The notes: generated by a model from the sequence alone, not told the origin. A stretch of DNA of 18,636 bases from a virus (IMGVR_UViG_2690316267_000010), one strand, 5' to 3'; counted from the first letter of the stretch, positions 7,959-18,636 are shown. Made by a program: numbers and translations.

Positions 7959-8966
7959 TCACCCCCTGAATCCTTCCGGGATCTGGCTGTAGTCCACGTT
8001 GTCGTAACTGGCTTTGAAGTACGGGTCCTCGCGTCTGGCTGCAGATACCGCAGGAACTTCCCAGGATTCTTCGAAATGACGATCCGGACCAAAGAACGTC
8101 GACGCCTGCTTCACGAACTGGGTACCGGTATTTCCAGAGACACGCACCCAGGCGGCATAGCGTTTCACACCGTCGAGCATGGTTTCGGGTGTCACACCTT
8201 CCCTGATTCGGGCTTTCCAGGCTTTAAAAGCGGCGGATTTTGAATTACCACCAGCACGTTTGGGATATTCCTGCCAGGCCTGTTCAAATTCCGGTGAATA
8301 TTCCTGTCTGGCAGAACGCGCTGGTGCAGACGCGTCAGCGGATGCGCCAATAGTGTTTTTAGTCTCCGTTGTAATCTCTGTAGTAATCTCTGTAGTAATC
8401 TCTGTAGTAATCTCTGTATTTGTATCAACATTCGGCGTATCCCCTGTTCCGTTATGACGTCGGGGGGTGTTCCGTTTTAACGTAATAGCTGTATCGCTGA
8501 TTGCATTATTGCTGTTACTTTCTGGCGAAACAGAAGAAGGTGTGGTGATGGCCGCAATTGCCTGTGGGTTGATCCCGACAAACAAAATATTGCTGCATTT
8601 CACCCCATCGAGCATTTCCACCGTGCGTAAATCCAGAGTAATAAACCCTGCATCGCGCAGACGCTTCAGCGCATCTGCGGTTTCCCTTTTCCCGAAACCA
8701 AACTGCTCAGCAAACGCCTGGTAGCTTCTTTGCAGTTTGTCGCCCTGAAAACGCTTGCGATATCCCAGCAACGCTCCGGTGTGCTCATCCCTGACCTCTG
8801 TCGGGCGGTACCAGTAAACGATCTCTGAAAGCAGAGCGATAGCCGTCGCATCCGGACGCCCACTGGGTAGTCGAATATATTTCCACCAGGTCGCAGGTGT
8901 AACATTGCCGGAAATATTAATTTGACCAATAGCCATAACTTCCGGTGTGGGGGCGTAACGGCTCAT
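7959..8966 (-). CDS. Putative replication-initiation protein (lambda O-like domain organisation)
   Basis: ATG with GGAAGGAGG RBS; N-terminal domain, central TEITTEITTEITTEITTE linker encoded by 12-bp DNA repeats, and a conserved-looking C-terminal domain (EFEQAWQEYPKRAGGNSKSAAFKAWKARIREGVTPETMLDGVKRYAAWV). Position in the operon matches a replication gene. Confidence 0.5.
   Translation of the reverse strand: MSRYAPTPEVMAIGQINISGNVTPATWWKYIRLPSGRPDATAIALLSEIVYWYRPTEVRDEHTGALLGYRKRFQGDKLQRSYQAFAEQFGFGKRETADALKRLRDAGFITLDLRTVEMLDGVKCSNILFVGINPQAIAAITTPSSVSPESNSNNAISDTAITLKRNTPRRHNGTGDTPNVDTNTEITTEITTEITTEITTETKNTIGASADASAPARSARQEYSPEFEQAWQEYPKRAGGNSKSAAFKAWKARIREGVTPETMLDGVKRYAAWVRVSGNTGTQFVKQASTFFGPDRHFEESWEVPAVSAARREDPYFKASYDNVDYSQIPEGFRG
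8371..8418. repeat. Four perfect tandem copies of a 12-bp unit (GTAATCTCTGTA); candidate origin iterons inside the O-like gene
   Basis: Directly visible at 8371-8382, 8383-8394, 8395-8406, 8407-8418, with a degenerate copy upstream (TCTCCGTT). Confidence 0.6.
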
Positions 8967-9262
8967 ACAACCTCCTTCCGCAGCATGAGAATTGTGTAGC
9001 CACGCGCAGGTTGTAGTCTGGCTTTTGCATCAATAGTAAGCGTTGCAATTTTTCGGATATGAAGATAACCAGCTCTTTCCAGTGCCAGGGTTTCCCTGAA
9101 TATCGCTTGCTTAGAACAACAGCAGAAATCAGCAAGCACCTGATGATCAATAACTCTCTCGCCTTCACCGTCTGAAGAACCCGACATCAAAACACGCAAC
9201 ATAATCAGGCGCTGAATCGGGTTATCGAAAGCACATCCGCACACAAACTGAAAACAGTTCAC
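8963..9262 (-). CDS. Hypothetical protein (99 aa), possible winged-helix DNA-binding
   Basis: GTG start with GGGAGGTG RBS; GTGA overlap with the upstream gene; HTH-like segment QVLADFCCCSKQAIFRETLALERAGYLHIRK. Confidence 0.45.
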   Translation of the reverse strand: MNCFQFVCGCAFDNPIQRLIMLRVLMSGSSDGEGERVIDHQVLADFCCCSKQAIFRETLALERAGYLHIRKIATLTIDAKARLQPARGYTILMLRKEVV

Positions 9263-9483
9263 GCCACACCTCCCAGACGCTTAAACATTTTTCCGGAGCA
9301 AAAGGCTATAAGCGGCATACTGACGCGGTAATTACGGCCCAGCGGTTCACAAACCACCTTCTGACATTCACGGTCAACCAGGCTAACACGTAGAACATGC
9401 CCAGCAGGCGTGGTGTACCACTGACCCGGACGAGGACAACGGAAAGTATGATTGGTAAACCGTTTGAAAATATTCCGGATCAT
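9259..9483 (-). CDS. Hypothetical protein (74 aa)
   Basis: ATG overlapping the stop of the upstream Rha-domain gene (ATGA); sits inside a tightly coupled operon. Confidence 0.45.
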   Translation of the reverse strand: MIRNIFKRFTNHTFRCPRPGQWYTTPAGHVLRVSLVDRECQKVVCEPLGRNYRVSMPLIAFCSGKMFKRLGGVA

Positions 9484-10640
9484 TTGCGCCCCCTTACCTC
9501 TGAAGGGTTCAGCGACAAATTTATGAGACTGGCCAGCGCCGAAGCATCATTAATATAGTCATATAAGCTAACAGCCAGCGGAGATTCGGCTTTTGCCAAC
9601 ATAGGATAAAGCTGCTGCAGCCAGACCTGATGAATTGATGAAATGTAGGAACAGAGAACGCTGGCGTTATGTGCAACGTCGCTCGGTACAGCGGGCTTTG
9701 AAAGCTGTTTCTCCATCTGGTTAAAGGCATTTATGTATGCCTCTTTGAACCGGGCAGCACGTTTACCCGTGAAACCCATAGCAAGAAACGCAAAACCGTC
9801 TCGTGTGATTTGATAGCAAGGGAGCTTGCGTGTACCACCGTTCGGTTGATTTACCGAAATCGATGTCTCCGCAAAATTGCGGGCACAAAACTCTGGGGAA
9901 CAATCCAGAGTGCGGATCTTTTTCAGCACATCGTCGTGACGCTTGGAGAAGAAGTTGGCAACAGCCAAAGAAGTGGTAACGGCCTGGCCGTTGTCAATGG
10001 TGATTTCAGGTTGAGTGAGGGCTGGGATCGTAGCCATGATGGCAGCCTCCGTTGACAGTGAAAAACTTCCACCACCGGAAACGCCAATTTCACTGGTGGT
10101 GAACTGGACGGGGTTGGCGTAACCGGCGTCAACGGAGACCGGCGCACCTTTCGGTGCCCCCGCCCAGCCCACCATAATCTGGATGTGAGCAAATGCGGAC
10201 GATAAAAAAGACGCTGGCGCGTCATACATCGCCGTTGACAATTTCAGGACGCCAATCCCGGCACCCGCTTTATAAGGTGCCTGAGCAGTGTAACGTCCCG
10301 GAATTGCAGAATCAATATGCTGGTGGTCCTTCACACTCAACAAAATCACGCCTGAATTTCCACAAAGGACTAAAGCACTCATGCGGGTAGTCTTTGCGAA
10401 GATAGATAACGCGCTGTGTTTCTGGCTCCCAACGAATAACATGGACATAAAGCCCTCTTCCGTCACGAAACCAGCGGTTAAGTTCCTGCACAACTCGCCC
10501 CCCACAGTCAGGTAAAGTTCTCTGTGGTTACTTACAGCCAGGTGATTTGGTAATCTGCATTCATGCCGTAACAACAGGTGTTCAGCGACGCTGACCACCA
10601 GCTGTTGCGACAAACGGTTATTTGCCGTTAAACTATTCAT
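9480..10640 (-). CDS. Rha-family phage regulatory domain protein with a long unrecognised N-terminal region
   Basis: 386-codon stop-free frame; ATG overlaps the YdaT-like stop (ATGA). Residues ~220-320 (VTTSLAVANFFSKRHDDVLKKIRTLD...CYQITRDGFAFLAMGFTGKRAARFKEAYINAFNQME) match the Rha domain; the first ~215 aa were not recognised. Confidence 0.55.
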   Translation of the reverse strand: MNSLTANNRLSQQLVVSVAEHLLLRHECRLPNHLAVSNHRELYLTVGGELCRNLTAGFVTEEGFMSMLFVGSQKHSALSIFAKTTRMSALVLCGNSGVILLSVKDHQHIDSAIPGRYTAQAPYKAGAGIGVLKLSTAMYDAPASFLSSAFAHIQIMVGWAGAPKGAPVSVDAGYANPVQFTTSEIGVSGGGSFSLSTEAAIMATIPALTQPEITIDNGQAVTTSLAVANFFSKRHDDVLKKIRTLDCSPEFCARNFAETSISVNQPNGGTRKLPCYQITRDGFAFLAMGFTGKRAARFKEAYINAFNQMEKQLSKPAVPSDVAHNASVLCSYISSIHQVWLQQLYPMLAKAESPLAVSLYDYINDASALASLINLSLNPSEVRGRK

Positions 10641-11194
10641 GCGTTAGTTTCTCCACAACCAGAAGCAATCGACGCCACGACGCCCGGAGCTGCACACTCG
10701 CGGGCGTTACTATTTTCTGGAGCGCAGAAGATTTTGTAGACCAGTGCTGCATGCTCCTGGAGCTTCGAAATTGAAAGATACAGTTCGTCGTTAATTGCTG
10801 TCTTCTCATGCGGTTCCACTACACCGTCTTCGATTGCTGAACGAATCTGTTTTGAATAACTGCCGATCTGTTCAATGACTTCCAGTAAACGCTGGTTAAT
10901 ATCGGCATTGTCCACATCCTCGACGTCAGGAAGAGACACAAAGACGCCATTTGCAGACTGCGCCACAGCGTCAGCAATGAAGTGAGTGCCACCAGCACGT
11001 TGTAAAATCATTGCCCATCCCAGCGGGAAAATCTGATCGCCATCGGCACGAAGGCGGTTAAATAATGCGTTCTCTGTTACATCCAGCCACTCAGCAGCTT
11101 CAGCGTAACCCTCCGGCAACGCCGCGATAGTTTTTCTGACAGCTTTCACGTACCACTCAGGCTGTTTTTCCACTTTCCAGTGATGATTACCCAC
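10637..11194 (-). CDS. cII-position regulator, putatively YdaT-like
   Basis: GTG start with AGGAGG RBS 6-7 nt upstream; 185 aa; second gene after cro, the position occupied by ydaT in Rac/CP-933P-type prophages. Family call is from memory. Confidence 0.45.
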   Translation of the reverse strand: MGNHHWKVEKQPEWYVKAVRKTIAALPEGYAEAAEWLDVTENALFNRLRADGDQIFPLGWAMILQRAGGTHFIADAVAQSANGVFVSLPDVEDVDNADINQRLLEVIEQIGSYSKQIRSAIEDGVVEPHEKTAINDELYLSISKLQEHAALVYKIFCAPENSNARECAAPGVVASIASGCGETNA

Positions 11195-11447
11195 GGCTTA
11201 CCTCCTGTTCCTGTGGTTTAAACCCATTCTGGTTTTGGCTAGATTGAAAACGTGCCGGATAAAGAATCTGCATTTCGCTGATTTCACCCTTAAAAAAATT
11301 GGCCAGACGTTCTGCAAGATCGATAGATGGAATTTGTTCCAGTCTTTCAATACGACTCAGCGTCGCTGGATTGACCTGAACGCCAGCAGCAACATGCTGC
11401 AAAGTAAATCCGTGCGCCTTACGCACATTCCGTAATGGTGATTGCAT
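11187..11447 (-). CDS. Cro-like HTH (XRE-family) repressor
   Basis: 86 aa, GGAGG RBS, HTH segment FTLQHVAAGVQVNPATLSRIER; transcribed divergently from the CI-like repressor. Confidence 0.7.
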   Translation of the reverse strand: MQSPLRNVRKAHGFTLQHVAAGVQVNPATLSRIERLEQIPSIDLAERLANFFKGEISEMQILYPARFQSSQNQNGFKPQEQEVSRG

Positions 11448-11544
11448 ATGACCTCCACATATTGCGTGATGAGCATATTATTTCACGCAAATATTTTGCG
11501 CAAGTTGATTTGCTTAACGCGCAATAAAGAAATGTAATAAACGC
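11448..11544. promoter_or_regulatory. OR-like divergent control region between cro-like and cI-like genes
   Basis: 97-bp AT-rich intergenic region with repeated TTGCG/CGCAA half-sites: TTGCGTGATGAGCAT (11462-11476), TTGCGCAA (11496-11503), TTGCTTAACGCGCAA (11510-11524). Confidence 0.5.
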
Positions 11545-12237
11545 ATGAACATAGGAAACCGAGTCAGACAACTTCGCCAGGCGAAGAACATGAAAATCGC
11601 CGATCTCGCTGAAGCAATAGGAGTGGATGCGGCGAATATCTCACGCCTGGAAACAGGTAAGCAGAAACAATTCACTGAACAAGCCCTGAGTAATATTGCC
11701 AGGAGCTTAGGTGTTGATATTGCTGATCTCTTTACCTCAGACGTCAAAAGTAATACTGTATGTAAAAACAGTATTAGTGAGGATGTTGCGCAGGTGAAGG
11801 ATGTATTCCGTATTGAAATGCTGGATGTCAGTGCCAGTGCGGGAAATGGCCTTATCCAGGGCGGTGATGTCATTGATGTGATTCATGCCATTGAATACAG
11901 AACTGATAATGCTGTATCGATGTTTGGCGGACGGCCAGCCAATCACATTAAAGTTATCAACGTTCGTGGGGACAGTATGTGTCCAACCATTGAGCCAGGA
12001 GATCTCATCTTCGTTGATGTCAGTATCAATCAGTTTGATGGAGATGGTATCTATGTATTTGGTTTTGATGATAAAATTTATGTCAAACGACTGCAAATGA
12101 TACCTGACAAACTACTGGTGATTTCTGATAACCAGATTTACCGTGAATGGGGAATTACCAGCGAAAATGAACACCGGTTTATGGTCTTTGGAAAGGTCTT
12201 AATCAGCCAGTCACAAACCCTTAAGCGACACAATTAA
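11545..12237 (+). CDS. CI-type prophage repressor (N-terminal HTH + C-terminal LexA/S24 peptidase-like domain)
   Basis: 230 aa; N-terminal XRE HTH (KIADLAEAIGVDAANISRLETGK); C-terminal S24-like region with GDSM (Ser) and downstream KR (FVDVS...YVKRL). Confidence 0.85.
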   Translation: MNIGNRVRQLRQAKNMKIADLAEAIGVDAANISRLETGKQKQFTEQALSNIARSLGVDIADLFTSDVKSNTVCKNSISEDVAQVKDVFRIEMLDVSASAGNGLIQGGDVIDVIHAIEYRTDNAVSMFGGRPANHIKVINVRGDSMCPTIEPGDLIFVDVSINQFDGDGIYVFGFDDKIYVKRLQMIPDKLLVISDNQIYREWGITSENEHRFMVFGKVLISQSQTLKRHN

Positions 12238-12257
12238 CCCTTACCTCCTCATCAATT

Positions 12258-12281
12258 AGCCACCCAAAGGTGGCTTTTCAT
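12258..12281 (+). terminator. Intrinsic terminator after the repressor gene
   Basis: AGCCACC-CAAA-GGTGGCT hairpin followed by TTTT, 21 nt after the stop codon. Confidence 0.6.
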
Positions 12282-12292
12282 TACCCTTTAAA

Positions 12293-12331
12293 TTGCATAT
12301 CTCGCAATAAAAACACTTGCATAATGCGCAA
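12293..12331 (+). promoter_or_regulatory. OL/PL-like operator pair
   Basis: Two 15-bp near-palindromes TTGCATATCTCGCAA (12293-12307) and TTGCATAATGCGCAA (12317-12331), same TTGC-N7-GCAA pattern as the site at 11510-11524; promoter hexamers not confidently placed. Confidence 0.5.
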
Positions 12332-12776
12332 CTTCATTTTATCTTTCTTTCCAGACAAACAAACAAGGTACTAACAAAATTTGGTTGTAACACGGCGTAT
12401 GGCACATGCGTCGTTAGCGGTCTGGGGACGTTAAAGGGGACAATCCACTCCTTGCTCGAGCAAACAAACCAGGTAGCCGGAATGTGCAAGTCAATGATGA
12501 TGCTGATAAGACGCCTAACCAGCGTGGCGGTTCGGTTTGACACCTGGGAAGAGACCAGGGTGCAACGATGAGGGCATTTATGGAACCGCGACAAAGTGTG
12601 GTGCCGTAACTGGCTAAGTGCTCTCAGCGTTGTGGTGAATGCGCAGGCTGATGCGCGAAAGACATTGCAGCTATTGCGGAAAAGAGCTGTTCGGCGGGGC
12701 AATTAAACGCCCGTGAGAGTCTGAAATAACCGCAAGCCGGAGATCAGCACCGGTCACCACAACAGCCACTGCTTTG

Positions 12777-12822
12777 GCGGTACCAGTTTGTACACTTGCT
12801 TCCGGCTGGTACCGCTCTTTTT
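12777..12822 (+). terminator. Intrinsic terminator within the early-left leader
   Basis: Perfect 10-bp inverted repeat GCGGTACCAG ... CTGGTACCGC (loop 19 nt) followed by TCTTTTTT. Confidence 0.5.
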
Positions 12823-12911
12823 ACAAAACAGAGAAGAGCATCACCGGCCGACGGGCTCATAACCCAATCCATCCGGGCGGCTGCCACCGCAGGTGTTCTT
12901 CTCTGTTTTGT
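12823..12911 (+). repeat. Long inverted repeat (17-bp arms, 16/17 matches, ~55-nt spacer); possible structured leader RNA
   Basis: ACAAAACAGAGAAGAGC (12823-12839) pairs with GTTCTTCTCTGTTTTGT (12895-12911); lies between the leader terminator and the first early-left gene. Confidence 0.5.
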
Positions 12912-12959
12912 GGAGAAACCAACCGACCTTGCAGGGTCGATATGATGAGGAGCAGCAAA

Positions 12960-13322
12960 ATGGCTAGCGAACGCAGTACTGATGTGCAGGCATTTATCGG
13001 GGAGCTGGACGGCGGCGTATTTGAAACCAAAATCGGCGCTGTTCTCAGTGAAGTCGCTTCCGGTGTGATGAATACGAAAACCAAAGGTAAGGTCTCGCTC
13101 AACCTGGAAATCGAACCATTTGATGAGAACCGTGTGAAAATCAAACACAAACTCTCATATGTTCGCCCGACTAACCGCGGGAAAATTTCCGAAGAAGACA
13201 CCACCGAAACGCCGATGTATGTCAATCGCGGTGGTCGCCTGACTATTCTGCAGGAAGACCAGGGACAATTACTGACTCTTGCCGGTGAACCTGACGGAAA
13301 ACTCCGCGCAGCAGGTCATTAA
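12960..13322 (+). CDS. Hypothetical protein, 120 aa (same size and position as CPS-53 YfdP)
   Basis: ATG with GAGGAG RBS 8 nt upstream; the longer track ORF (TTG at 12774) is rejected because it begins inside the terminator hairpin. Confidence 0.5.
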   Translation: MASERSTDVQAFIGELDGGVFETKIGAVLSEVASGVMNTKTKGKVSLNLEIEPFDENRVKIKHKLSYVRPTNRGKISEEDTTETPMYVNRGGRLTILQEDQGQLLTLAGEPDGKLRAAGH

Positions 13323-13387
13323 TATCGTTTTTAATAAACTGATTATTTCTCTCATCACTGAATATTTTTATATAGTGAGGACTTATT

Positions 13388-14212
13388 ATGTCTCAGAACT
13401 TAGACGCAACCGCAATTAATCAAATCCATGCCCTTATTTCTGCTCAGGGTGTTAATGAAATTATCAGTAAGATTGGTGCCGATGCTGTGGCATTGCCTGA
13501 GAATTTCCGCATTCATGATCTGGAAAAATTTAATTTAAATCGTTTCCGTTTCCGTGGTGCGCTTTCCACTGCCAGCATCGATGACTTTACTCGTTATTCT
13601 AAAGATCTTGCAGATGAAGGCACCCGCTGCTTTATCGATGCCGATAATATGCGTGCCGTCAGTGTGCTTAACCTGGGTACTATTGATGAGCCAGGTCACG
13701 CAGATAACACTGCCACTCTCAAACTGAAAAAGACAGCACCGTTCTCTGCTCTGTTGTCTGTTAATGGCGAGCGTCATTCCCAGAAGTCACTGGCAGAATG
13801 GATTGAAGACTGGGCCGACTACCTTGTGGGCTTTGATGCTAATGGTGACGCTATTCAGGCAACAAAAGCGGCTGCGGCTGTCCGTAAAATCACGATTGAA
13901 GCAAACCAGACCGCTGATTTTGAAGATAATGACTTCAGCGGCAAACGCTCCCTGATGGAGTCTGTCGAAGCGAAAACCAAAGATATTATGCCAGTGGCAT
14001 TTGAATTTAAATGCGTTCCGTTTGAAGGTCTGAAAGAACGTCCATTTAAATTACGCCTCAGCATTATCACTGGCGATCGTCCTGTACTGGTTCTGCGCAT
14101 TATTCAGCTGGAGGCGGTGCAGGAAGAAATGGCTAACGAATTTCGTGATCTGCTTGTTGAGAAATTCAAAGACAGCAAAGTAGAAACCTTTATTGGTACT
14201 TTCACCGCCTGA
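13388..14212 (+). CDS. yfdQ: DUF2303-family protein (YfdQ-like)
   Basis: 274 aa, GTGAGGA RBS; N-terminus [57 protein letters not shown] matches CPS-53 YfdQ as recalled. Confidence 0.7.
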
Positions 14213-14339
14213 TTTCATTACTGCAAATGCCCCTGCGGGGGCATTTATGGAAACGTAATTGACTCAATAATCGCCGGATGGTGAGGGCTTCCTTTTACCA
14301 GAATTCAGCGTGGTGCAGCACATATACGCGGAGAACAAA

Positions 14340-14864
14340 ATGTCATTTATTAAAACTTTTTCCGGGAAGCATTTTTATTATGACAGGATAAATAAAGACG
14401 ACATCGTGATTAACGATATCGCGGTTTCCCTTTCAAATATCTGTCGCTTTGCCGGTCATCTTTCACACTTCTACAGTGTCGCCCAACATGCGGTGCTTTG
14501 CAGCCAGCTGGTGCCGCAGGAATTTGCTTTTGAAGCGTTAATGCATGATGCAACAGAAGCGTATTGCCAGGACATCCCCACGCCGCTGAAACGTCTTCTT
14601 CCTGACTATAAACGGATGGAAGAAAAAATAGACGCCGTAATCCGTGAGAAATACGGGTTACCCACGGTTATGAGCACGCCTGTGAAATATGCCGATCTCA
14701 TCATGCTGGCAACCGAACGCCGCGATCTCGGGCTTGATGATGGCTCTTTCTGGCCTGTACTGGAAGGTATCCCGGCAACAGAGATGTTCAAAGTTATTCC
14801 ACTGTCGCCAGGCCATGCCTATGGGATGTTTATGGAACGCTTTAAAGAGTTAACTGAGTCGTAA
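14340..14864 (+). CDS. yfdR: HD-domain phosphohydrolase (YfdR-like 5'-deoxynucleotidase)
   Basis: ATG with GGAGAA RBS; 174 aa; HD motif (EALMHDATEAY); follows the YfdQ-like gene as in CPS-53. Confidence 0.7.
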   Translation: MSFIKTFSGKHFYYDRINKDDIVINDIAVSLSNICRFAGHLSHFYSVAQHAVLCSQLVPQEFAFEALMHDATEAYCQDIPTPLKRLLPDYKRMEEKIDAVIREKYGLPTVMSTPVKYADLIMLATERRDLGLDDGSFWPVLEGIPATEMFKVIPLSPGHAYGMFMERFKELTES

Positions 14865-14972
14865 AAATCAGCACGTACGAATTCAAACTCTGCCATAAAA
14901 GAACATATAAGTAATTTATTAACATATAGATATAGGTTATATTACAAATTGAAAAATTATTGGAGAGCAACA

Positions 14973-15839
14973 ATGAATCAAAATCCATTCTCATTCTATG
15001 ACTTTCTTGGATATTTAATACCAGGTGGTTTTTTTATCCTATTAATGTATTTCTGTGGTTTGACATTCGATCTAGATATTGTTATTGACTTAACTGAATT
15101 GCTCAGAGGTCAAAGTCAAATCTTTGGCATTTTGAACTATGGTTCAATAGTAATCATATCTTACATAGCTGGACACTTTATATCTATCACATCCGCATTT
15201 TTTATTGAAAAATATATGAACGAAGAATTGCAATATCCATCAGAATATCTATTTAATAAGTTATCAGATGACAAAAAAAACGTCTTAACACCATCAAGTG
15301 ACAAACAGAACGAAGACACAAAGAGAAAAATAAAATACTGCATAATCAAAGTAATGTTATTCCCGATAATACCATGGGATTACGCCACTCAAAAACTATG
15401 TTATTCACAATCATTGCCATTTCAATTAGCTAATACCACATGGCTAATGATCAAAGAAGGTTATGAAAAAAAATTCAGAATAGACGATAAATTATTAAAC
15501 ATCAGGACAGGTCTTCATGATGATCTTTTCAGATTGGCTTATCATTACGTCTATGAATTTTCTAATCAACATCAAACAAAAATTCAAAACTATGTTGCAT
15601 TATATGGTTTTTGCAGAAATATTTGTTTAGTATTTGTAATTACATTTTGGATATCATTTCTAACATTAATTTATCGTGCTATAGAAGGTGGGGCGGTGTC
15701 TTATATTTCTATTTCGACGCTACTTAGCTTTTTCTTCGTCTATGTTTTTTATGTTGGATTCGTTAAGTTTTATAGACGATATACTTTAGAGGTATTAATG
15801 GCATTTGCTGTACTTCAGAGCAAAGATGCTATTAATTAA
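14973..15839 (+). CDS. AT-rich multi-pass membrane protein (288 aa), function not recognised
   Basis: ATG with GGAGAG RBS; hydrophobic segments FLGYLIPGGFFILLMYFCGL, IVIISYIAGHFISITSAFF, ICLVFVITFWISFLTLIY, ISISTLLSFFFVYVFYVGFV around a hydrophilic central region; much lower GC than its neighbours. Confidence 0.6.
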   Translation: MNQNPFSFYDFLGYLIPGGFFILLMYFCGLTFDLDIVIDLTELLRGQSQIFGILNYGSIVIISYIAGHFISITSAFFIEKYMNEELQYPSEYLFNKLSDDKKNVLTPSSDKQNEDTKRKIKYCIIKVMLFPIIPWDYATQKLCYSQSLPFQLANTTWLMIKEGYEKKFRIDDKLLNIRTGLHDDLFRLAYHYVYEFSNQHQTKIQNYVALYGFCRNICLVFVITFWISFLTLIYRAIEGGAVSYISISTLLSFFFVYVFYVGFVKFYRRYTLEVLMAFAVLQSKDAIN

Positions 15840-15879
15840 TATATTACCCTCGGGTGCAGCCGGGATAATGGAGAAATTT

Positions 15880-16161
15880 ATGAACACCTTGTTTTTACTG
15901 ATGGCTGAATTCAATACCTCAAACATTGAACTCTCAGCAGTTAGCCAAAAGTACTTTGGTATGAGTCCAGCCACAGCAGAAGCAAAAGCAAACGCTTGTA
16001 AGTTGCCCGTTCCAACATATCGCATCGGCACATCACAAAAAGCAAAACGTTGCATCAATATTCAGGATCTTGCGGAATACATAGACAAAAGACGAGAAGA
16101 AGGACGTATCGAGTGGGAACAGGTCAGAACAGGCAAACAGAAGGGCAAAGAACATCACTAA
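15880..16161 (+). CDS. PrtN (pyocin-activator)-family small DNA-binding protein
   Basis: ATG with GGAGAA RBS; product MNTLFLLMAEFNTSNIELSAVSQKYFGMSPATAEAKANACKLPVPTYRIGTSQKAKRCINIQDLAEYIDKRREEG resembles PrtN-family proteins as recalled. Confidence 0.55.
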   Translation: MNTLFLLMAEFNTSNIELSAVSQKYFGMSPATAEAKANACKLPVPTYRIGTSQKAKRCINIQDLAEYIDKRREEGRIEWEQVRTGKQKGKEHH

Positions 16162-16163
16162 AG

Positions 16164-16189
16164 AAAAAACCCGCCTAAAGGCGGGTTTT
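16164..16189. terminator. Bidirectional intrinsic terminator
   Basis: AAAAAA-CCCGCC-TAAA-GGCGGG-TTTT between the convergent PrtN-like gene (plus) and the 57-aa ORF (minus). Confidence 0.7.
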
Positions 16190-16208
16190 CAAAAAGCACC
16201 AGCTATGA

Positions 16209-16382
16209 TCATGCTGCTTTGCGACGACGAAGCTTACCCTGCTGCTCTTTACCAGAGACAGTAGCGTGAGTGAACGCATTAGGAGCAGCCTTCATCAGAA
16301 CTTCAACAGCAGCCCCCATACCTGCGAATGCTTTCATTGTGTCGAACTTAAGCTGTGGCTTGGTTGCTTTTTGATCTTCCAT
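16209..16382 (-). CDS. Small basic protein (57 aa), last gene of the minus-strand Panacea operon
   Basis: ATG with GGAG RBS, 40 nt downstream of the 139-aa gene; product MEDQKATKPQLKFDTMKAFAGMGAAVEVLMKAAPNAFTHATVSGKEQQGKLRRRKAA; stop lies 20 nt before the bidirectional terminator. Found by hand. Confidence 0.4.
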   Translation of the reverse strand: MEDQKATKPQLKFDTMKAFAGMGAAVEVLMKAAPNAFTHATVSGKEQQGKLRRRKAA

Positions 16383-16421
16383 AGAAAACTCCAGAAGTTA
16401 TACCGAAACAATTCCTGTTGT

Positions 16422-16841
16422 TTACTCATCATCAATAGATGATACGCAATATTTATTTTTAAATTTAAGGTTCTTTGGCGTAACTTCATCAGAGATATCA
16501 AAACCGTCCAGAATTCTATTGAATGTAGCTTCTGGCATATCATCATGAACAGAAATCTCACCCGATCGCTGCTTTCTAACCATGTTATCCACTCGCCAAA
16601 TTATAGCTTCAGCGTAAACAACATAACTTGGATGCTTGATAAAGCGATGATCACCAGAATTCAAGACGCAAGACGGATCGTGGGGGACACCATCCTTGAT
16701 ACTAGAAATATTAACAACTAAAACACAATAACAATCGTTAACGGGGTAATAAACAGGATCATTACAAATCACATGAAGATGATTGCATGGTCCAGTTGGG
16801 GCAAGCACAGTTCCTTTCCTGTATGGCTGATAATCCGTCAT
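16422..16841 (-). CDS. Unrecognised 139-aa protein, candidate toxin/effector partner of the Panacea-domain protein
   Basis: ATG overlaps the stop of the upstream DUF4065 gene (ATGA); AT-rich; Cys/His-rich N-terminus (GPCNHLHVICNDPVYYPVNDCYC); no family recognised. Confidence 0.55.
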   Translation of the reverse strand: MTDYQPYRKGTVLAPTGPCNHLHVICNDPVYYPVNDCYCVLVVNISSIKDGVPHDPSCVLNSGDHRFIKHPSYVVYAEAIIWRVDNMVRKQRSGEISVHDDMPEATFNRILDGFDISDEVTPKNLKFKNKYCVSSIDDE

Positions 16842-17410
16842 GATAATTGCAAAGAAAATTCCTTAAGTTTCTGAGATTCTTCCATTTTGCCAATTATGCG
16901 ATTAGCCTCATCCTCGCTTTTACCCTCACTGATCAGCATTTCTTTCAGGTCTATAGGCTTACGAGAATTGCCAGGATCGTGCCACTCTGGACAAACGCTT
17001 TCTAAATGCGTCATATTTGCGAGATCAAATCGGTTCATATGCCCATACCGAGAATAGATTTCATCTAAAATCCGGATATCTGCACGACTCAATTCATCAA
17101 AGACCTCGTCTGCATCCATTTCCCTCGGATCTGAACGCAACGATACATTATGCCCGTTCGTCTCTATCAAGTTGTACCAGTAGTCACCAATGCCTTCAGC
17201 CTTACCGCGAATCAAGTTCAGCGTATTCGACATGACTGGTCCAAATTTCATAGAGTAAAGGCTATCTTCGCCGATCATCCTGCCATGCTTCAAAATCGAC
17301 TGGCGGTTAGACAGATAGAGCAGCTTCATCAATTTCAGATATGCCATGCGCCCACCTCTCTTAAGAAGTAGGTATGCAGCCATTTGAGCTACTTTTTCTT
17401 CGCAAAACAT
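16838..17410 (-). CDS. Panacea-domain (DUF4065, GepA/SocA-like) protein, candidate antitoxin
   Basis: 190 aa, GAGG RBS; N-terminal region AYLLLKRGGRMAYLKLMKLLYLSNRQSILKHGRMIGEDSLYSMKFGPVMSNTLNLIRG resembles DUF4065/Panacea proteins as recalled. Confidence 0.6.
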   Translation of the reverse strand: MFCEEKVAQMAAYLLLKRGGRMAYLKLMKLLYLSNRQSILKHGRMIGEDSLYSMKFGPVMSNTLNLIRGKAEGIGDYWYNLIETNGHNVSLRSDPREMDADEVFDELSRADIRILDEIYSRYGHMNRFDLANMTHLESVCPEWHDPGNSRKPIDLKEMLISEGKSEDEANRIIGKMEESQKLKEFSLQLS

Positions 17411-18061
17411 ATAAGAAACCTCAAAGATAGTGAACTTTATAATTATTCTCGATACTTCATGGGTTGCTTCATCACCAACATGAGCTTCTTATGGTGTGCC
17501 CACTTGGGCCTAAGCAACCAGTTACCTCGTTTGTCAAGTTTATAGCTGGCTTTAACCATGGTCAATTGAAGTGATGAGCAAATGATGCTTTCTAAGAATA
17601 ACAGGTTCCCAATAGGCTCCCACAAAGTGTATAACTAGTTGTTTTTCAAAAATGGTACATCCTATCGAGCATTGGTGCAACGCTAAACCGACCACTCCAG
17701 TGAACGTCAGTTTTTTCAGGCATTGCGCTGGTTTGGTTGATTTTTTGCATTTCAGAATTACCGTGCATTTTCAAATGTAGAGATTATTTTATCGATATAT
17801 CATGGGGTTATGTTATTCAGCATCACTATTCAGGAGGCTCAATAGCGGGGTACTATACCATAACAACAGGAAGCGCCTGTCTCATTGCAAAAGAAAATTG
17901 AGATCCTCTCAAGGCATGAAGCTCTCACGAAGTGATGGAAATAATCTTATTAGCCGTTAACTTTGTTAAGGCCAATGATAAACAATCCAGGTTCGACGAT
18001 AAATAAAAAATCACACATTAAACTCTGGTGATATATCTCCCTGCTAATAGCATTGATAGAG

Positions 18062-18095
18062 AAAAAAGAACCCAATAAATATTGGGTCCTTTTAT
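18062..18095 (-). terminator. Intrinsic terminator downstream of the IS1-disrupted gene
   Basis: GAACCCAATA-AA-TATTGGGTCC hairpin flanked by A6 and T4; on the minus strand followed by TTTTTTCTC. Confidence 0.4.
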
Positions 18096-18130
18096 ATAAT
18101 GCCTTCCATACTATCGAAGAACTTCACATA

Positions 18131-18532
18131 TTATTTCTCCGATTTAACCCCGAACAAATCATAAATTAATTTAGAAGTGTCTGTAAGTATTTTAATCTCT
18201 TCCTTTGAGGTTGGGTCAAACGACTTCGCGAAGCTAATTAATTGTGGTGCAGCATCTCGCATTTTGCTTAAAATATCAGGATCGAGCGTTCCTTCATTCA
18301 CCAGATGTGACATCTTATCCAGATAGCCATCAAAATTCATTTCTCCCCCATCAGCCAGACGCTTCATCTCTCCCAGGTACTTCTTCATATCACGTTGAGA
18401 TAATTTTTCAAACTGAGCTTTCAGGTAGCTCTCATTATTTTCATTAATATACACTGTTTCTGATAAATCTGCGTAGGCACTAGAATATGAAAGTGAAATT
18501 AACAGCGAAGCAAATAATTTTAAGCTGTTGTC
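18131..18532 (-). pseudogene. Secreted/periplasmic protein gene truncated at its 5' end by IS1
   Basis: Reading frame is open from the IS1 junction (18532) to the stop at 18131; the sequence before the track's GTG start encodes a signal-peptide-like stretch ...SLKLFASLLISLSYSSAYA|DLSETV... with no in-frame start before an in-frame TAA inside the IS1 inverted repeat. Confidence 0.5.
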
Positions 18533-18636
18533 GGTGATGCTGCCAACTTACTGATTTAGTGTATGATGGTGTTTTTGAGGTGCTCCAGTGGCTTCTGTTT
18601 CTATCAGCTGTCCCTCCTGTTCAGCTACTGACGGGG
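18533..18636 (+). mobile_element. IS1 left end (terminal inverted repeat and start of insA), continues beyond window
   Basis: GGTGATGCTGCCAACTTACTGATTTAGTGTATGATGGTGTTTTTGAGGTGCTCCAGTGGCTTCTGTTTCTATCAGCTGTCCCTCCTGTTCAGCTACTGACGGGG matches the canonical IS1 left terminus as recalled. Confidence 0.85.
18588..18636 (+). CDS. insA: IS1 InsA (N-terminal fragment, continues beyond window)
   Basis: GTG GCT TCT GTT TCT ATC AGC TGT CCC TCC TGT TCA GCT ACT GAC GGG = (M)ASVSISCPSCSATDG, the InsA N-terminus. Confidence 0.7.
   Translation, partial: MASVSISCPSCSATDG

Follow-up and report, generated by a model that had tools for sequence, protein, structure and literature searches.

A putative mobile PanA-PanT toxin-antitoxin cassette with a predicted MazF-fold toxin in a dusA-integrating lambdoid prophage of Escherichia coli

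The window analyzed here is an 18,636-nucleotide stretch of viral DNA (IMGVR_UViG_2690316267_000010). It comes from a lambdoid prophage of Escherichia coli and is 99.9-100% identical to prophages of poultry and bovine strains, for example strain E2. At the prophage edge, the minus strand carries three consecutive open reading frames (ORFs) for proteins of 190, 139 and 57 amino acids: panA (16838-17410), panT (16422-16841) and orf57 (16209-16382). These ORFs, their strand and their coordinates agree with an initial annotation of the same DNA, which was made from the sequence alone and read them as an AT-rich three-gene operon, a candidate toxin-antitoxin or anti-phage module. We describe panA and panT as a putative antitoxin and a putative toxin that share a swappable cassette (16396-17596, minus strand), and we place orf57 outside it.

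The panA gene is predicted to encode a Panacea domain (residues 27-137) followed by a C-terminal extension of 53 amino acids. The DUF4065/Panacea identity first proposed for this protein was upheld by a hidden Markov model (HMM) search with PF13274, SocA_Panacea (E 2.2e-19, 70.9 bits, gathering cut-off 25.7), and RefSeq names it a "Panacea domain-containing protein". It is not a SocA equivalog, scoring 14.4 bits on the NCBIfam model with a cut-off of 190. The PanA N-terminus, MFCEEKVAQ, is similar to the MIFSEQKVAQ of the validated PanA of Pseudomonas moraviensis, and the protein has no DNA-binding domain. A ribosome-binding site, GAGG, is located at 17419-17422. Inside the cassette, a consensus scan gave a candidate sigma-70-like promoter on the minus strand (17537-17565; TTGACC, a 17-nt spacer, TAAACT), the sole promoter-like site upstream of panA. 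The near-palindrome TTGACCATGGTTAA at 17552-17565 overlaps the -35 element of this site and could be an operator. Apart from the ribosome-binding site, no promoter or operator upstream of panA is conserved across genera, and the near-palindrome is not kept in other genera. Local inverted repeats in this region were considered and rejected as short and unconvincing.

The stop codon of panA and the start codon of panT share the bases ATGA (16838-16841, minus strand). This overlap, already pointed out in the initial annotation, indicates translational coupling. No Shine-Dalgarno sequence was found within 15 nt of the panT ATG, and the -4 overlap recurs in homologous pairs of Enterobacter and Proteus and at many genome loci. 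RefSeq/PGAP (WP_014640052.1) places the panT start at codon 12, a GTG, which shortens the protein to 128 amino acids and removes the overlap, and the record of phage Lys8385Vzw starts the gene at the ATG. Because PanT residues 1-11 (M-T-x-Y-x-P-Y-R-K-G-T) are kept in 32 homologues, the ATG start and the ATGA overlap are supported, and the RefSeq start (16808-16841 region) is probably a mis-annotation that drops 11 conserved residues.

PanT had been noted at first for a Cys/His-rich N-terminal part (C19, H21, H23, C26, C37 and C39) and for matching nothing recognizable, and our searches agree on both points. The single sequence has no match in Pfam, PADLOC, NCBIfam or the PDB, nor does the family profile have one in the PDB. 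Chance-level matches to ICMT, DapC, antibody and coat-protein fragments were discarded. The sole database match is PHROG 19071, a family of unknown function. When 1.84 billion cluster representatives were searched with the family profile, 2689 relatives of PanT emerged (50% identity representatives, E ≤ 1e-3), nearly all of about 130 amino acids. The family signature includes H21, L22, D55, (C58), G63-[D/E]64-H65-x-F67, S72, Y76, G113 and S117. A zinc site made of H21, H23, C26, C58 and H65 was considered and rejected: H23 and C26 are conserved in the close subfamily only, and 15 out of 63 distant relatives have Val in place of C58. Since these three residues vary, the Cys/His richness does not point to an obligatory metal site.

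Structure prediction gave a confident AlphaFold2 model of PanT from the family alignment, with a predicted local distance difference test score (pLDDT) of 92.8 and a predicted template modelling score of 0.85. The top 47 Foldseek matches of this model are all MazF, and MazF/Kid proteins rank above CcdB in both fold searches. Judged from the model, PanT consists of a domain of MazF/CcdB fold to which two C-terminal helices are added. Our best guess is that the active site is His-based, made of H21 and H65 with D55, S72 and Y76, and does not use the Arg/Thr pair of MazF.

The association of the two genes is widespread. We scanned species representatives for the PanT motif GDHPFIxHxS; 65 loci were returned and 64 analyzed, and they span Gammaproteobacteria to Acidobacteria, Nitrospirae and Planctomycetota. 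An adjoining upstream ORF on the same strand was callable in 61 loci, and it is a PanA homologue in 58 of them. The gap between the genes is mostly between -8 and +10 nt, typically -8, -4, -1 or a few bases. The motif scan did not recover the P. moraviensis locus itself. In their catalogue of PanA-associated toxins, Kurata et al. (2022, PNAS; PMC8832971) asked for two genes, panA and that of a putative toxin, separated by at most 100 nt, and for conservation of this arrangement in at least two species. The -4 overlap in the window, the 58 of 61 loci and the Enterobacter and Proteus pairs all show this arrangement.

Sequence comparison ties the window PanT to one cluster of this catalogue, T6. 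The rows listed for T6 include Photorhabdus namnaonensis PB45.5, Corticibacter populi DSM 105136, Malikia spinosa 83, Rodentibacter pneumotropicus DSM 21403 and Rodentibacter genomosp. 2 Ppn422 (PMC8832971). Homologues of the window toxin were found in all five genomes by tblastn or genome scan (the tblastn hit in P. namnaonensis PB45.5 has 46% identity and E 2e-36), and in four of the five the distance to panA equals the value in these table rows (-1, -8, -8 and +2). By way of these shared cluster members, the PanT family of the window matches T6. The T6 toxin of P. moraviensis is toxic, is neutralized by PanA and co-purifies with it; it arrests growth and specifically inhibits incorporation of 35S-methionine and not of thymidine (PMC8832971). 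Among the T6 rows listed it is the only member marked as tested, and it is marked toxic and neutralized. The toxin-antitoxin reading, which the initial annotation had offered as a candidate, is supported because the family coincides with T6, a cluster with a validated member; the MazF/CcdB-fold partner and the adjacency at 58 of 61 loci speak for it too.

Comparison by blastn with phages mEp460 and Lys8385Vzw delimits the cassette, whose ends are breaks in homology to mEp460. Homology between the window and mEp460 is lost near 17596 and picks up again at 16395, which lies 13 nt ahead of the ATG of orf57. Backbone and orf57 are shared by mEp460, which has a gene for a 177-amino-acid protein (phrog_4350) at the place of panA-panT. 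The G+C content of the cassette is 40.7% (38-43% for the pair), compared with 49.3% for the backbone (1-14800). The AT-richness claimed for the whole operon therefore holds for panA and panT and fails for orf57, which has a backbone-like 48.9% and lies outside the segment that differs from mEp460.

Of 5426 complete E. coli genomes, 207 (about 4%) carry the cassette, as a single chromosomal copy. Identical pairs are carried by the free phages Lys8385Vzw and SKA5, and the gene order in Lys8385Vzw is dinI, int, a dusA 5' mimic with attP, panA, panT, orf57, a xis-like gene and exo. Close PanAT pairs of Enterobacter and Klebsiella (73% toxin identity) are located between tail genes, and a Proteus pair (63% toxin identity) follows tail-fibre genes. 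Both keep the -4 overlap, and the pair is thus mobile as a unit. Relative to E. coli copies with about 97-98% identity in cassette DNA, all three differences in panT are synonymous; in panA, 10 codon changes are synonymous and 5-6 are nonsynonymous. The synonymous-only changes in panT are consistent with a constrained toxin.

The 73%-identical toxin is encoded in Enterobacter, Klebsiella and Citrobacter within the tail cluster, between gpK-like (JAB/NlpC-P60) and gpI/gpJ-like genes (loci L080-L085, 2432-3453), an unusual position for a moron.

We read positions 16396-17596 as a mobile cassette carrying a two-gene type II toxin-antitoxin system, panA-panT, and as a moron of a dusA-integrating lambdoid prophage, inserted between the excisionase-like gene and attP; we give this reading a probability of about three in four. 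PanA would bind PanT directly and keep it inactive, and loss or inactivation of PanA would leave PanT free and bring translation to a stop. PanT would most likely be a metal-independent endoribonuclease. The invariant His21 would open strand 2, in the position of His28/Arg29 of MazF, and would act together with Asp55, His65, Ser72 and Tyr76. In the lysogen, the module may serve prophage retention (addiction) or abortive-infection defence.

Several results weigh against this reading. For the E. coli pair itself, toxin and antitoxin activity are predicted from the comparisons above. The window accessions are not among the table rows listed, and RNase activity of T6 members is itself a prediction. 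The PF02452 PemK/MazF HMM does not match PanT at E ≤ 1. Alignment of PanT to the single E. coli MazF with hhalign has a probability of 0.2%, which is not significant, and it puts Leu22 at the catalytic Arg29, with the invariant His21 opposite His28, and S46, a position that is S/T across the family, opposite Thr52. Upstream of panA, promoter-like sites are fewer than in shuffled controls and the candidate promoter is a weak consensus match. At E ≤ 1, no model of PADLOC-DB 2.0.0 matches PanA, PanT or the orf57 product. In the rows listed by Kurata et al., PanA pairs of the E. coli MOD1_EC5558 prophage and of Salmonella phage Emek, both of cluster T1, are marked "not Toxic" (PMC8832971).

The position of the cassette at the prophage edge, proposed earlier, is confirmed by the host DNA beside it. 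Positions 17665-18532 are 99.9% identical to K-12 and contain yjbM, the dusA promoter and dusA codons 1-35. Because this part matches K-12, the prophage ends at 17664, and the junction 17664/17665 is 254 bp from the panA start. The displaced chromosomal dusA 5' end (codons 1-35; 17665-17768, minus strand), which RefSeq annotates as a partial dusA, reads toward panA. A terminator scan found no terminator-like site in the intervening 17411-17664, and read-through from the displaced host dusA promoter into panA is possible in lysogens. The phage has its own dusA 5' mimic, 82% identical, beside int. Such a mimic next to int fits the dusA-integrase model that Farrugia et al. reportedly set out in 2015.

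Farther from the junction, the left end of an IS1 element (18535-18636, plus strand; annotated as IS1A/IS1B transposase) begins 1.1 kb from the operon. The initial annotation took this neighbour as a sign of accumulating defence cargo. The element is inserted in chromosomal yjbM (DUF2713) and is absent from the closest genomes, whose match ends at 18532, so it is no evidence for cargo accretion at the prophage edge and is unrelated to the panA-panT module or to prophage cargo.

On the other side, the bidirectional terminator first placed at the end of the operon was found again as a G+C-rich hairpin at 16165-16190 (11-bp stem, 6 G-C pairs), bordered by an A-run and, at its opposite end, by a T-run. 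It is common to orf57 and to a convergent PrtN/excisionase-like gene (15805-16161). Between yfdR and the xis-like gene, a gene with 29.9% G+C (14949-15839, plus strand) encodes a predicted membrane protein of 296 amino acids. It matches phrog_12528 and has weak matches to SieB (PF14163, E 1.4e-3) and to the PADLOC Csx27 model (E 2e-5). The stretch has no homology to Lys8385Vzw or mEp460. From its sequence, the gene looks like a second moron and is possibly a superinfection-exclusion gene.

One alternative concerns the role of the pair and leaves its mechanism as above: the Panacea domain would sense an incoming phage and release PanT, making the module an abortive-infection defence and not a plain addiction module. 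This is possible, and we hold it only tentatively. In its favour are the moron position at the prophage edge beside the AT-rich membrane protein gene with weak SieB/Csx27 similarity, a Proteus homologue pair that adjoins an Abi_2 gene, and the sensory role of Panacea hypothesized by Ernits et al. (2023). The PADLOC-DB result speaks against it, no experiment on a defence role of any T6 pair was found, and the tail-operon placement in other prophages is uninformative on defence. The anti-phage part of the initial annotation is accordingly not supported. A bolder form of the same idea, which we consider unlikely, would make the T6 PanT proteins a large offshoot of the MazF fold, so far unannotated (2689 or more clusters at 50% identity), in which His21, Asp55, His65, Ser72 and Tyr76 stand in for Arg/Thr and serve another substrate or chemistry. 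With Panacea as a phage sensor, the pair would then form an uncatalogued abortive-infection system, carried by roughly 4% of the complete E. coli genomes.

The pair could instead be a non-toxic phage accessory module, for example in regulation or nucleic-acid binding, that causes no growth arrest. The two "not Toxic" pairs suggest this, PanT has no apparent counterpart of the catalytic Arg of MazF in the non-significant hhalign alignment, and the cassette resides in inducible, apparently functional phages. However, the toxins of those two pairs fall into another cluster, and the one T6 toxin that the listed rows mark as tested is toxic and neutralized. The strict coupling of antitoxin and toxin genes across phyla and the synonymous-only changes in PanT are what would be expected of a constrained, active protein. 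We therefore regard a non-toxic module as rather improbable.

The initial annotation treated the three genes as one unit, and a three-component system would make the 57-amino-acid protein a functional third partner, such as a regulator, a chaperone or a second antitoxin. The orf57 gene (phrog_2741) is a real, conserved small gene. It has the same orientation as panT, starts 39 nt downstream of it, has its own GGAG ribosome-binding site and shares the single terminator that follows all three genes, and it may be co-transcribed with panA-panT here. The three genes follow one another in this order in phages Lys8385Vzw and SKA5, as well as in each of the three E. coli prophage copies inspected (E2, UPEC_U013 and EC12). 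Structure prediction, informative for PanT, assigned no fold to this protein (AlphaFold2 pLDDT 60.5).

The wider distribution of orf57 argues against the three-gene unit. In mEp460 and in Salmonella prophages it occurs without PanAT and always after a phrog_4350 gene (177-179 amino acids), which in the Salmonella dusA prophage edge encodes 177 amino acids. In Enterobacter prophages, phrog_4350 (66% identity) and orf57 are found together after the Q antiterminator. The two genes thus occupy two different prophage moron sites (L067, 2771-3674; L071, 2274-3174; L076, 2283-3174) and form an uncharacterized mobile two-gene cassette, the larger gene of which PanAT seems to have displaced here. The idea that the 177-amino-acid protein is a GNAT protein was dropped, with no Pfam match even at E ≤ 10. 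Conversely, orf57 does not adjoin PanAT in the two close homologue families checked (P0004 and P0017; Enterobacter/Klebsiella and Proteus), and the downstream ORFs vary across the genome loci analyzed. The resumption of mEp460 homology ahead of the orf57 ATG and the backbone-like G+C content of the gene point the same way. Tripartite toxin-antitoxin systems of the TAC and paaR-paaA-parE type have a third gene that is conserved with the pair, and orf57 is not conserved in this manner. It is best read as the partner or remnant of a different cassette, outside the PanAT module, and a third functional component is very improbable.

Equally remote is a CcdB-like PanT that poisons DNA gyrase or another non-RNA target without cleaving RNA, a reading that the shared MazF/CcdB fold brings to mind. 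Against it, MazF/Kid rank above CcdB in both fold searches and the P. moraviensis homologue blocks incorporation of 35S-methionine rather than thymidine (PMC8832971).

With the two-gene toxin-antitoxin reading, a RefSeq "hypothetical protein" whose gene is carried by 207 of the 5426 complete E. coli genomes gains a name, a function that can be tested and a tie to a validated toxin family. The att-adjacent moron site of dusA-integrating phages is seen to exchange cassettes, with PanAT in the window and the unrelated 177-amino-acid gene in mEp460 and the Salmonella prophages. The conceptual gain is small: PanA with MazF-like toxins and the mobility of such pairs on phages were already described in 2022-2023, and the partner of panA belongs to a family that is already catalogued and is merely unrecognizable from sequence alone. 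The novelty that remains concerns the catalytic constellation, so far unstudied, of a large group of MazF-fold proteins, and a role in defence that the cassette may have.

Among known systems, Caulobacter SocA-SocB, the founding Panacea/DUF4065 antitoxin in a type VI toxin-antitoxin system, shares the PF13274 domain with PanA. SocA is a ClpXP adaptor for SocB, an unrelated toxin, and nothing here suggests such a mechanism for PanA. The gyrase poison CcdB of the F plasmid falls below MazF in fold rank, and the T6 relative acts on translation, not on replication. Compared with MazF/PemK/Kid (PF02452; E. coli MazF, PDB 5CK9 and 1UB4; Kid, 1M1F), PanT has 8-17% identity, a shorter loop between strands 1 and 2 and two additional C-terminal helices. 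Its partner is a Panacea protein and not one of MazE/AbrB type, and a conserved His/Asp/His/Ser/Tyr set would take the place of the Arg29/Thr52 pair of MazF.

The closest likeness is to the T6 pair PanA-PanT of P. moraviensis LMG 24280. In both, a gene for a stand-alone Panacea antitoxin lies upstream of a toxin gene for about 130 amino acids and the genes overlap or abut; the two PanT proteins have no CDD or Pfam hit and a MazF-like fold, and the PanA N-termini are similar. The pairs differ in setting: that of P. moraviensis is flagged "NotPhage" in the rows listed for T6, whereas the pair described here is carried by a dusA-integrating prophage of E. coli.
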